The position numbers were made by a program, and so were the translations under genes. A stretch of DNA of 64,000 nucleotides from Eledone cirrhosa (Eukaryota), in assembly GCA_964016885.1 (NCBI GenBank), contig OZ024742.1, positions 72,230,001 through 72,294,000 on the forward strand, given 5' to 3'. The notes under the pieces were generated by a model. The model was not told the origin of the DNA. It worked only from the letters and a program-made list of their open reading frames with translations, and did not search any database. Shown piece by piece: positions 20,437-58,929 of this stretch. Numbering within the stretch: the first letter of the stretch is position 1; each line of letters opens with the position of its first letter.

Positions 20437-20954
20437 CTAGAGTGAATAAAAAAGAAATATTCAGAAAAGAGATTGAATACATCAGTTAGAGTGATGAAAG
20501 AGGAAATTATGGTTTTATACATTTTACTTGTAGTTGATGGTGTGAGATTTATGGTATTGCTAGGATCCTCTCATCCTGGCTAATGCATGTAACATTATTT
20601 TGGGTGGTTAATTTAATCTTTTGTTCAATTTAACACCAGTAATTGGTCCTTGAGTATCTTTAGCAAGGTCTACTCTATTTCAATCATTCATGCCAGGTCA
20701 CTGGTTTAAGAATACTATCCTTTCTCTTACCAATGATGGAGGCTCTAAAAAGAACCATGGGAACTGCTTTCTCCTCTCTGATTAAACAATAAAACACATC
20801 TACCTTTTGGTGTTTTTCTGTCCTGGGTATCTTTTCATTGCTTCCAGCTAAGGGTCTCTAGCCACCTGTTTATATTTCTTCATGATTTTATGATAAAATG
20901 TTAACATGATGTTCATACATGCCTGTCTTTCTATTCTTTCTTCTCTCACATTTT

Positions 20955-20992
20955 ATCTTCTGGTGAAGGACAAATGTCTGAAACGTTAAGAT
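20955..20992 (+). ncRNA. Degenerate minimal hammerhead in a Penelope-like terminal fragment
   Basis: ATCTT-CTGGTGA-A-GGAC-AAAT-GTCT-GAAA-CGTT-AAGAT; core A6 is mutated to G. Same family as 53383-53418. Confidence 0.5.
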
Positions 20993-21369
20993 GCTTTCCC
21001 TACTCTATCAAGCATTAATCTAATATATATCATCATTAACCCATGCAAACATTTTTCTTGTATGCACTTATAATTATAGTTTAATGCATAGTTCACTGGT
21101 TCTCTTTGAACATGGCTGCGACTGTGGCTCCTGAGACCAGATTTGTTCAAGCAAATTTTTCCATTCAGGGCACTTCAATTCAATGGAGACACTGATCATT
21201 TCGAGAGATACACCAGGGCATTGCTTATGCACATCCCATTTGAACTTCTCATGCTCTATGCGTCTGTCCTCAAAATTATGGACCCCATCATTTACCATTT
21301 CATGCCAAGTTTCTCTTTCAAGAGCTTCTATCTCTCAGTCAGCCATCATCAAACCAGTTTTTTTTAATG

Positions 21370-54609: not shown

Positions 54610-57600
54610 AGGTGGGGAAAAGATGAATTAATGTTAAATAGAAGAAAAAGGTCCACAAGATCGGTAATTTGGGCAGAATCACTAGAGCCCATAGTTATGT
54701 AGAAGAGATTACTATATGTAGGAAAAATTACTATATAGGAAAAATTATAAAAACACAAATAATGCGGCTCTTATCAATATCAACAACAAAACATACAGCA
54801 TAGTAAATAAATTCAATATTGAAGACAGAACTGAACCCTTGGCACTGAAAAAAACACATTTTAACCTGAAGGATCACAAATCTAATTTCAACTCTAATCC
54901 TTCTATAAGACTTATATGCCCTTCTAAATCAGACATTGGCATCATAAGCAAAAAAAATCTGGATAGAATTATCCCACAATTAAGAAAACACGTTAATTTA
55001 CTACTCTGGGAAAACACATCCCAAGTAATTACTTGGTTTACTAATATTGAAAATAAATCCTCTGCTTCATTTCTACAATTCGATATAGATGCATATTATT
55101 CCTCTATATGACCCATACTCCTGAACAAAGCCTTGATATTTGCCAAAAATAGATCAGACTTAACTATGGATGACATCAATATTATCACGCACGCTTGACA
55201 AACACTACTTGAATTTCAGAAGGAATTGTTGGACCAGAAATACATATAGTAATCTCTTCGACATAACTATGGCTCTAGTGATTCTGCCCAAATTACCGAT
55301 CTTGTGGGCCTTTTTCTTTTATTTAACATTAATTCATCTTTTCCCCACCTTAAAGGTGGTTTATATCGTGATGACTGTCTTCTTCTATCCTCTAATCTTA
55401 GCCTATCAGAAATTGAAATAAATAAAAAACTTATTAGAACTTTCCTCAAAGACTATTATAATCTCACTATTACATTTGAAAACACCAGTAAAATAGTCAA
55501 TTTCCTAGATATAACTATGGACCTATATACAGGAATCTACCAACCTTACCATAAATCTAACCAAAACTTGCATTACATACACTCACAATCTAATCACCCT
55601 AGATCTATCCTTAAAAACCTAGCATATAATATCTCACTCAGAATCATGATGTATTCGATAAAAACGCGCCCTTTTATAATGAAACTTTAGCTAGAAGTGG
55701 CCATAAGAACAAATTAGTCTATATACCTTGCACCAATAATATTTCAAACACAACCTAATATTACCAACAAACACCAAATGAAAAACCCACACCTAAATGC
55801 CACTCATACTACACCTAAAAACACCAACCCAAAACTTAATTTCTCTACCTCTTCTCACATAAAAGATAATGACGTTCAAAAAACTATTCACCCTAATACT
55901 CTTATATATGTCAACAACATAACTAACAAAATTCCTAGTAATCAGGCTAAAACATCAATTAATCTAACTAAACCTATATATAATAAAATCACTAATAGTA
56001 ACTCTATCAGTAAACCTCCCGATACATCATATAAATATAAGAAACAATGTCGAAACCGTAATAGATGGGTTACTTGGTATAATGCTCCATTTAATCTACA
56101 GATTAAAGACCATATCCCTAAAAAAAATTCTTTGCTATCCTGGAGAAAAACTTCCCACCAAACCATAAATACCATCAAATTTTAAATAGATCTACTGTCA
56201 AATTTTCCCACTCCACTACCAAGAATATACAACAGAATATAAGTGCTTACAACATATATAAGTGTAAAAAAAAACATAAATATACCACCAACATATCAAA
56301 CCAACCATAATAATACTAAAATAAACGAAAACAAACCACCTTCTTCACCTATAATAGGTCCCGTAATAATCTCCAAAACAAACAGAACTCTACTAGCTCC
56401 ACATCCCCTAAATTATCACCCACCAACAACCTGTCTAACCATACTAATCTAATTACAACCCATTCTAAACCATACATTAATGAAAATAGTAACACTAATA
56501 CCACTATAGATAACACAATTAACTCTCCTGATACAATATTTACGAATGGGTGTAACTGTAGAATCAAAAGAAATTGCCCATCAAAGGGAAATTGTCTTAT
56601 TAATAACATATTCTATAAATGTGTAATTAGTACTAAGGACTCCACTCAATCCTATATAGGAGCTACGTCTAACCAATTTAAAGTAAGATTTAATACCCAC
56701 AAACATAGTTTTTAAAATGCCGCATTAGCTAATACAACCTCCTTGGTTGAAGCAATTAATAATTATAGAAAGAAGGATATTGATTGCAACCTGACCTGGA
56801 GCGTGCTCAAAAGGGCCATCCTTTATCAAAATAGCAGATATGAGTGTAGGTTATTCTCCCAAGAACTATTTGAAATCATGAAATCTAATGATATCCTATT
56901 AAATAAGCGACAGGAGTTAATTATATCATGCAATCATAGAATTAGAAAAACCTTCAAATATTATAAACTTAATTAATATATACCTCACTCTTATATTTTA
57001 CAAATTATTATAATTAATTTAAAAATTGTTTTTTAATTTAGTTAACCTATAATTAGATATTTACTACTAAGAATTTCATAATTTTATTTCCCTCCTGCAG
57101 CTCACTTTACCTAAAGTTATCTTTAACCTCACTACTTCTTTTAACCGCATCCCCTATCTATCACATTTAATACCTAGGATTATTAAATATAATTAATATC
57201 TTTAATATTATGGATGTTTAGATAGATACACTTTTTATAAAATTTTATCTATTTCAGTCTTTCTATATATATTTTTTATTTTATTTTTTTTTTTACTTCT
57301 TTATTTATCACATTCATAAGAATTAATATAATTTTAATTCTGTAATTAATTTAATTTCCCTTTATGTATCTAGGTTCCTTGAAATTTAAACAGGAGTAGT
57401 ATTTCTCACTAACACTCTCATCCCACAAAAAATTCATTTCCCTTCGTTTTTAACAGCATTCTTTAATAACATCAATTTTTTTTTTGGGGGGGGGGGGGGG
57501 GGGATCCTTCACAATTTCATTGACTTGAGCTCATTTTAACCCCTATCTTTCTCTTCCCCATTGTATTCTTTTCATTCAGAGCATAAATTTACATTCCTCC

Positions 57601-57930
57601 ACTCCTAGCATAAAGTTCTACTACTGTTATTCTATCAACTTGACCTCTAACTCTTTTCTATGGTCAATTCAAAACCTGTTCCCAAACAGACTTTTTGTAT
57701 TAATACTGTGTTTCTTTCAATAAACATACTTCATCATTTCTGAAGATGGCATATATAAGTGACGGTATATATATATCTCCTCTGATAATTTGTAATATTT
57801 TTTTACATAGATCTTTAATATGATATACATACCAACACACATATATATCCCAGAAACGATCGTAAAATGATGACTTTTTCAATATAAGGAACCTGTTCTT
57901 TGTTTTTATTTCATTGTTTTTATTTATTTA
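54610..57930 (+). mobile_element. Penelope-like element (RT + GIY-YIG endonuclease + 3' pLTR), degenerate
   Basis: RT: SIRLICPSKSDIG, QFDIDAYYSSI, GLYRDD, NFLDITMDL, YIHSQSNHP. Endonuclease: CNC..CPSKGNC..IFY..SYIG..FKVRFNTHKHSF. Inverted 5' piece (54610-54720 = reverse complement of 55241-55350); ends at (TA)n. Confidence 0.9.
57732..57872 (+). ncRNA. Hammerhead in the Penelope 3' pLTR with a ~100-nt helix II insert
   Basis: CAUCAUUU-CUGAAGA-UGG...CCA-GAAA-CGAUC-GUA/AAAUGAUG. Perfect 8-bp helix I and palindromic ACGAUCGU helix III. Confidence 0.75.
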
Positions 57931-58929
57931 AATATATATATATATATATATATATATATATATATATATATATATATATATATCACATAAGAAACGGAGA
58001 ATCAGTGTTGCGACGAATAAAATTTATTAGACATATTACAATCGTTTCTCTGGCGACCAGCTCGAGGCACGATCGATGTAATGATCGAACCTGACTCTGA
58101 AATCGCAAGATCCTTACATACGTCTCGATTCTACGCACATCTGCAACATCATCAGTGGTACTATTAGACATTACAATACAATAGGAGGGAACATAATAAT
58201 AGTACCACTGATGATGTTGCAGATGTGCAACGAAAGAACTTTGATAGACTATATATATATATTTATATCTGTAGTTTTTTAACCGTTGGTCACTTATGAT
58301 AAACATTGATTGCCAAATAAATTAACTATGGAGATATAAAATATACAGAAGCGAAAACCAACCAAACAGTGAGTGTGTTCTGTTATTATTTCTGGCAATA
58401 TTATTACAACAATATGACCCTCCCCAAGTATAATAATATTTGTTTCGACACACGATTTCATATCAAAAACCTTGCAAAACAATATATATATATATATATA
58501 TATATATATATATATATATATATATATATTGCAAAGGGAAGTAAGGTTCTATACAATAGTGGCTATATAGAAAAGGTGAGATTGGAAATAGCACTGAAAA
58601 TATATTTAAGGATCTGTTTTTCTTTTTTTGTCCTTTTTTTTTGATTCGTCAAAGTGGCATTATTGAAAAAAATGAGAGGGACATTTCTTTTAAAAAGAGA
58701 ATTTTATAATGTAGTATATAAAGTATATAAAGTATTGCCGGTTTCTATGTATTAGTCAAATTCATCTTATCAAATGTTAAGTATTACAATTAAAAAGAAT
58801 TAATAAGGATTAAAAACTAAAAATATAAGATTTAAAATCAAGTGTTGAGGTAAGTTTTTGCATCTTACTTGTTGAGAAAAAGACTATATATGTATGGAAC
58901 ACTTGAAGAACAAACGAAAATATACTTAC

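Follow-up and report, generated by a model that had tools for sequence, protein, structure and literature searches.

Metazoan non-LTR (lacking long terminal repeats, LTRs) retrozymes, as set out in the accessible portions of two accounts (PMC7229834; 10.64898/2026.07.22.740005), are AT-rich, non-coding elements repeated in tandem, with a unit length of a few hundred bases and one type I hammerhead ribozyme per unit; they range from monomers to long multimers and occupy many loci, often within introns. Those portions report neither the strand of the elements relative to host genes nor their effect on host splicing, and Octopus is not mentioned in PMC7229834. For a ribozyme on the sense strand of an intron, the closest comparisons are CPEB3 (PMC10919898, in the part available) and engineered intronic hammerhead and hepatitis delta virus (HDV) ribozymes. 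Here we describe a stretch of 64,000 nucleotides from Eledone cirrhosa (GenBank assembly GCA_964016885.1, contig OZ024742.1, positions 72,230,001 to 72,294,000; hereafter the window) in which a tandem array of hammerhead-bearing units lies in sense orientation inside a 38.5-kb intron of a membrane lectin gene. The array shares all of the retrozyme features listed above and is a non-LTR retrozyme family member, with predicted self-cleavage. We propose that the host probably tolerates it as a passenger and does not use it to switch the gene, and that its sense placement in a long intron is likely due to chance.

The array (Table 1) begins 16.6 kb after the splice donor and ends 11.1 kb before the acceptor. 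Its units average ~428 bp with a GC content of ~36%, and no open reading frame (ORF) of 90 codons was found inside the array. Each unit comprises a U6-like motif, a TATA box, a hammerhead with a predicted cut after GUA (for example, at 42094), an AATAAA signal, and a T5-T6 run. The motif is of type I, with a 5-bp helix I bearing a long extension, CUGANGA and GAAA core segments, and a 4-bp helix II whose basal position is U.U; helix III is a single A-U pair under the palindromic loop CUAG. The initial annotation had read these hammerheads in the sense of the host gene, and this was borne out for orientation (25/25 on the gene strand) and qualified for integrity—the core is kept in only 18 of the 25, and core plus helices in 14, among which consecutive intact motifs form five adjacent pairs. 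A type I descriptor run on the window returned 15 motifs on the gene strand and one on the other, against none in 40 shuffles, while Rfam models detected no hammerhead in the window at gathering or E-value thresholds and gave only microsatellite-driven miRNA matches.

Table 1. Positions of the host-gene exons, the large intron, and the ribozyme-related elements in the window
Feature	Coordinates	Strand	Basis
Coding exon for N-terminal half of lectin domain, fucolectin type (FTP, F5/8-C-like)	63557..63790	-	spliced-contig junction and homology (62% identical to O. sinensis XP_036361484.1)
Coding exon, C-terminal half of lectin domain; donor of large intron; 198 nt, AG/GT, phase 1-1	58930..59127	-	contig and homology
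Intron (GT..AG), 38,493 nt	20437..58929	-	flanking exons joined in X4 contig
EGF-like coding exon, single copy in assembly; 123 nt, AG/GT, phase 1-1	20314..20436	-	contig and homology
Transmembrane exon with short tail and stop codon	12912..13087	-	C-terminus matches O. sinensis protein
Retrozyme array flanked by (TA)n tracts; 25 units, each 425-430 bp long, and a terminal repeat of ~58 nt	31568..42305	-	repeat and motif scans
Dispersed copy of array family, intact hammerhead at 46489, antisense to gene	46169..47353	+	descriptor and family comparison
Older array-family copy (~90% identical), next intron, gene strand, inverted 5' piece	16714..17437	-	family comparison
Minimal hammerhead, C3 53414, GUU triplet, palindromic AACGUU, 4-bp helix I	53383..53418	-	by eye
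Minimal hammerhead of type I with C3 at 53737 and palindromic UGCA loop; cut predicted after 53706 (AUA)	53699..53837	-	descriptor
Decayed Penelope-like reverse transcriptase/GIY-YIG remnant, antisense to gene, array intron	54722..56900	+	GIY-YIG match weak (E 0.083), label tentative

The host is a membrane protein with a signal peptide, an EGF domain, an FTP lectin domain, a second EGF domain, a transmembrane helix, and a short tail, in that order. The signal-peptide exon (L034:6240-6161) and the first EGF exon (~L034:5160-5020) both lie past the window end, the gene being on the minus strand. All of its exons have AG/GT borders and start in phase 1, and the coding exons have open reading frames. 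When three of the host exons were searched genome-wide, each proved single-copy in the 3.0-Gb assembly. Word-index protein searches gave no homologue of the host protein; a full HMMER search recovered O. sinensis XP_036361484.1 (314 aa), 62% identical and the highest-identity single-domain match among the 150 matches listed, which aligns to the gene pieces in the same exon order. Exons 3' of the array are as conserved relative to this protein as those 5' of it, with 26/33 identical residues in the EGF exon and 15/16 at the C-terminus. Because XP_036361484.1 ends in nearly the same 16 residues, the lectin gene is, by this comparison, intact, and its early stop is its normal end. Past the stop codon, an exon-like segment with a strong acceptor and donor (11480-11414, minus strand) is possibly a 3' untranslated exon.

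The lectin exon ending at 58930 had been predicted to splice in frame to the EGF exon starting at 20436, and a search for that junction found it. Four sequencing runs carry the lectin exon, none marked as RNA in any record. Over 58540-59500, runs X1 and X2 are DNA-like, with contigs that cross the exon-intron borders of the lectin exon. In run X4, on the other hand, contig 19 (1,373 nt, word depth 29.8) agrees with the assembly at every base of 58929-59127. Beyond that exon, one loose end reads into the end of exon 63790-63557 (30/30) and the other into the start of the EGF exon (29/30). From this exon-only cover and the spliced ends, we infer that X4 is RNA. The two exons are in frame; phase alone would be weak proof of the join, since all modular exons of the gene are phase 1. 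No X4 contig extends over the intron bins beside the lectin exon (58870-58902 and 59134-59298), and these empty bins are uninformative for or against a read-through form. At the single EGF-exon mismatch (20431, gene strand), the genome has G and the contig A; as this runs opposite to adenosine-to-inosine editing, the difference is likely allelic. Neither a motif scan nor the genome search gave hidden exons or a second EGF copy, which disfavours a processed retrocopy as the origin of the contig. A candidate exon at 59395-59272 was rejected, as the contig skips it.

We searched the genome with one unit as query, obtaining 1,849 first-look candidates, 39 of which were scored. Among the 30 loci fetched, copies mostly comprise 1-4 units, often with an inverted 5' piece and in a (TA)n setting; elsewhere in the genome are other arrays of 5-15 kb, such that the family is dispersed and includes both monomers and multimers. 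In many of the 30 loci, the 3' end is constant, the target is (TA)n, and a 5' piece is inverted, with no partner Penelope-like element identified; the available part of 10.1101/2021.04.23.441226 describes inverted 5' pieces and (TA)n insertion for Penelope-like insertions. Orientation within the gene looks like a coin toss locally, because the array intron also holds the intact antisense copy at 46489 and the next intron a sense copy (17014). In the latter, a double change in helix I (U.G to A-U) retains pairing. Within the antisense copy, an unrelated 550-bp stretch (46733-47286) separates the element from its 3' terminal repeat.

Array units differ by 2.6% from their own consensus and by ~4% from one another, one deletion is common to all of them when compared with the dispersed consensus, and 58 of 67 array variant alleles were seen in fewer than two of the 30 dispersed copies. 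Units 6-13 are duplicated as units 14-21 with 0-3 differences per unit. Together, these patterns point to one short insertion followed by aging in place and amplification at the DNA level; specifically, a short multimer would have been inserted by Penelope-type machinery and amplified afterwards. The array is probably older than the alleles, because ~4% unit divergence is about ten times the 1/259 coding-base difference between contig and assembly, a rate given by one mismatch in constrained sequence.

Decay of the hammerheads within the array has proceeded at about the neutral rate: two core mutations were observed versus 2.6 expected, and seven of 25 motifs are dead versus 6-7 expected at neutral divergence. 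Other copies of the family, however, carry six mutations at 11 core positions where base-matched neighbours predict 19.5 (p 0.03 for dispersed copies, p 0.005 for other arrays), in a set chosen by similarity to the array and with segments of more than 12 differences excluded (1/25 in the array). This constraint at the level of the family supports a real ribozyme. Comparison with CPEB3 is mixed. As there, a sense ribozyme lies ~10 kb 5' of the next exon in a transcribed, spliced intron, where cutting would race splicing; whereas the CPEB3 ribozyme, in the part of the account available, is single, HDV-like, and conserved, the array is mobile, multi-copy, and neutrally decaying, with predicted activity and, in these small numbers, no sign of purifying selection at the locus.

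Would these motifs cut the pre-mRNA? The question is a legitimate one, and each outcome has precedent: introns cut by a hammerhead or by RNase H are still spliced, whereas splicing is lost when a fast HDV ribozyme does the cutting (Dye 2006 and Fong 2009, as cited in the accessible text of PMC2995048), and the CPEB3 ribozyme lowers CPEB3 mRNA (PMC10919898, in part). Folding predictions suggest a weak, dimer-type ribozyme, with a monomer essentially devoid of helix III (pair probability 0.0). The two weak features combined in the array motif are split in axolotl, according to the available text, between HHR_Amex1 (a one-pair helix III with a palindromic tetraloop) and HHR_Amex2 (U.U at the helix II base), and dimer dependence is alike; with one such defect each, the axolotl ribozymes cut 6% and 22% in one hour as monomers and much better as dimers (PMC7229834, in part). 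Minimal Penelope-type motifs are weak even as dimers, and eight of nine Xenopus retrozyme dimers did not cut in vitro (10.64898/2026.07.22.740005, in the portion available). During transcription, moreover, we infer that the unit's own long hairpin would form before a double hammerhead.

A further feature of the units is a candidate promoter. In this genome, five of nine loci compared share TATGSWAATKAG at -77 to -79 with a TATA at -30. The carriers are three unrelated U6 loci, one of four U6atac matches, and the MRP gene, and the element is not in RNase P, the other three U6atac matches, one further U6 copy, or any of ten U1 loci. All 25 array units carry it (12/12 match to the U6 upstream element, at most one mismatch) with a TATA 42-43 nt on, as do 27 of 30 dispersed copies, compared with 0.23 per shuffled window. 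The 53737 hammerhead, which belongs to a Penelope-type repeat of a different family, is likewise preceded by such an element at 53837 (11/12 match, TATA 44 nt on), although its zero-mismatch score is partly circular, the scan pattern having been widened after this case was known. Spacing between element and TATA is 42-44 nt in these repeats versus 47-49 in the five Pol III genes, or 4-6 nt shorter, and in either family transcription starting as it does in U6 would begin at the 5' arm of helix I. A U6-like motif in every unit sets this array apart from metazoan non-LTR retrozymes as portrayed in the accessible text of PMC7229834 and 10.64898/2026.07.22.740005. It can be likened to the internal small nuclear RNA-type promoter of newt satellite 2 (Coats 1994, cited in PMC2220036, seen in part); in contrast to those newt and axolotl systems, the promoter motif here is similar to the Pol III (U6) element of this genome and dissimilar to its U1 promoters. 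Array units may thus be transcribed from their own promoter. The initial annotation had held that host transcription alone would yield the ribozyme multimer, with no internal promoter needed; the array is indeed crossed in the ribozyme sense, but with the motif in 25/25 units, host read-through may not be needed.

Two side observations concern promoters elsewhere in the genome. In the U1 genes (L048-L057), a TATA-like box is located near -31 and a shared A(A/G)TCAGT-like element near -58, and TTAC(C/T)TCCCTTG lies far upstream of several U1, U6, and neighbouring loci (the U6, U6atac, and MRP loci being L038-L041, L070, and L074).

Taken together, we favour the reading of the array as a tolerated passenger. 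Following its insertion and amplification, weak, dimer-dependent, decaying ribozymes would cut the host intron slowly and co-transcriptionally, a cut intron would still permit exon joining through tethering, and the units would be transcribed from their own U6-like promoter. For these two reasons, the weakness of the predicted ribozymes and the tethering of the exons, splicing across the array would likely burden the host little. An intronic position is itself common among retrozymes, with 42-44% intronic in Xenopus (10.64898/2026.07.22.740005, in part). Several points weigh against this reading. After normalisation, Xenopus retrozymes are depleted in introns according to the same portion of that account, a hint of some cost, and the array and the other copies do not differ significantly in core constraint (Fisher p 0.25). 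X4 is not recorded as RNA, its RNA status being our deduction, and the spliced contig, with its 1/30 EGF-base mismatch and other sample code, may stem from another allele, one that may or may not carry the array. Adjacent units are predicted to be able to fold as a double hammerhead 0.2-2.6 kcal/mol from the minimum at 37 C, predicted to be 17 kcal/mol better than two monomers; because this dimer fold is near the minimum and axolotl dimers cut much better than monomers, slow cutting is a presumption. In a race model with 14 intact sites and elongation at 3.8 kb/min (PMC2995048, in part) or an assumed 1.5, 54-79% of transcripts would be uncut at the 3' splice site at a monomer-like rate of 0.004/min and only 1-16% at 0.03/min.

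That double hammerheads cut the nascent host intron repeatedly while the gene is still spliced, with exons tethered and Pol II supplying monomers and circles, strikes us as unlikely, at perhaps the upper end of what that word covers. We consider it somewhat unlikelier still that double hammerheads of the array sever a large fraction of the nascent RNAs, attenuating the gene kinetically in the manner of CPEB3 without abolishing it. The distance to the 3' splice site is 11-22 kb for the 14 intact sites and the five adjacent intact pairs, the folded dimer comes close to the energy minimum, and the CPEB3 ribozyme, 9.9 kb from its next exon, has a half-life of 2-3 min (PMC10919898, in the part available); set against these are the neutral count of dead motifs, with no sign of selection on array cores, the existence of a spliced product in X4, and the eight Xenopus dimers that did not cut. 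Mild attenuation of the gene may nonetheless occur.

Two other proposals appear improbable. Sense intronic arrays might be the Pol II-read source of full-length family multimers, the U6-like promoter giving only transcripts that stop at the T5-T6 run before the unit end. This run is found ~310 nt past the predicted start in 25/25 units, dispersed copies contain the promoter region, such that a full-unit template must exist, and intron-dependent transcription is known for ribozyme-bearing baggins and RTE elements (PMC6765202, in part). Against this, the three-variant array haplotype, the one haplotype tested genome-wide, had two matches, both inside the array, and none of 354 diagnostic 24-mers occurred among 114 other family copies, which gives no support to the array as donor of dispersed copies; the spacing 4-6 nt below that of U6 also leaves room for a promoter of Pol II type, as in newt satellite 2 (PMC2220036, in part). 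More improbable by a shade is a gene truncated by the array, whether through cleavage or through the AATAAA of its units, with a lectin-only product or a silenced array-bearing allele as the result; the initial annotation had raised truncation, for example to a lectin-only product. Units do have AATAAA and a GU-rich run on the gene strand, 27 of the 42 intronic AATAAA lie in the array, reading into the intron reaches a stop after ~20 codons, and the spliced contig has one mismatch with the assembly. Yet one AATAAA per 428 bp is close to background (15 in the other 27.7 kb), unit divergence far exceeds the difference between contig and assembly, making the array likely older than the alleles, and the exons 3' of the array are open and conserved, the EGF exon being joined in the spliced contig, which speaks against a lectin-only product.

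The remaining ribozymes of the intron differ from those of the array. The motifs at 53383 and 53700 were correctly placed on the gene strand; they are, however, of the minimal Penelope type and not GUA sites. The first was missed by the descriptor owing to a bulged helix II and was identified by eye. Both share a palindromic helix III and minimal layout with the weakly active hammerheads of Penelope-like elements (PMC4209133, in part), but no intact Penelope ORF is attached, and the nearby remnant is on the other strand. The Penelope-type repeat at 53597-54165 contains a direct repeat and, near 54049, a second hammerhead that is inverted and broken, and its unit shares U6-like motif and TATA geometry with the unrelated array family.

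Other repeats are interspersed through the gene. LINE (long interspersed nuclear element) reverse-transcriptase remnants between 11000 and 53300 lie mostly on the gene strand, and two retroelement remnants are antisense (25913-28141 and 54722-56900). For the sense LINE near 52800, an unvalidated descriptor detected no HDV-like ribozyme at its 5' end. The array intron also contains a CT-rich tandem repeat (43083-44522) that is degenerate, has units of 76-80 bp, and shows extreme GC skew, and a 95-nt near-perfect hairpin (47555-47649) resembling a miniature inverted-repeat transposable element. A Helitron-like PIF1 helicase remnant (59678-62854, plus strand) occupies the intron separating the two lectin exons, and 3' of the stop codon, on the gene strand, is an LTR-retrotransposon-like element with DUF7047, RNase H-like, and integrase pieces (6499-10469).

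Animal genomes hold thousands of intronic retrozymes, and we found no study measuring the effect of a natural sense-strand retrozyme array on its host transcript, in a search that left subscription papers and supplements largely outside. With an intact, conserved gene, a spliced product, and 14 intact motifs with unit-specific variants, this locus offers a ready setting in nature for studying how introns that contain ribozymes are spliced, and the antisense copy in the array intron provides an internal control. If cutting is fast, the locus would be a natural test of exon tethering; if slow, it would explain why such arrays are tolerated. Were the array active and the gene spliced nonetheless, exons would be naturally tethered across a shredded 38.5-kb intron.

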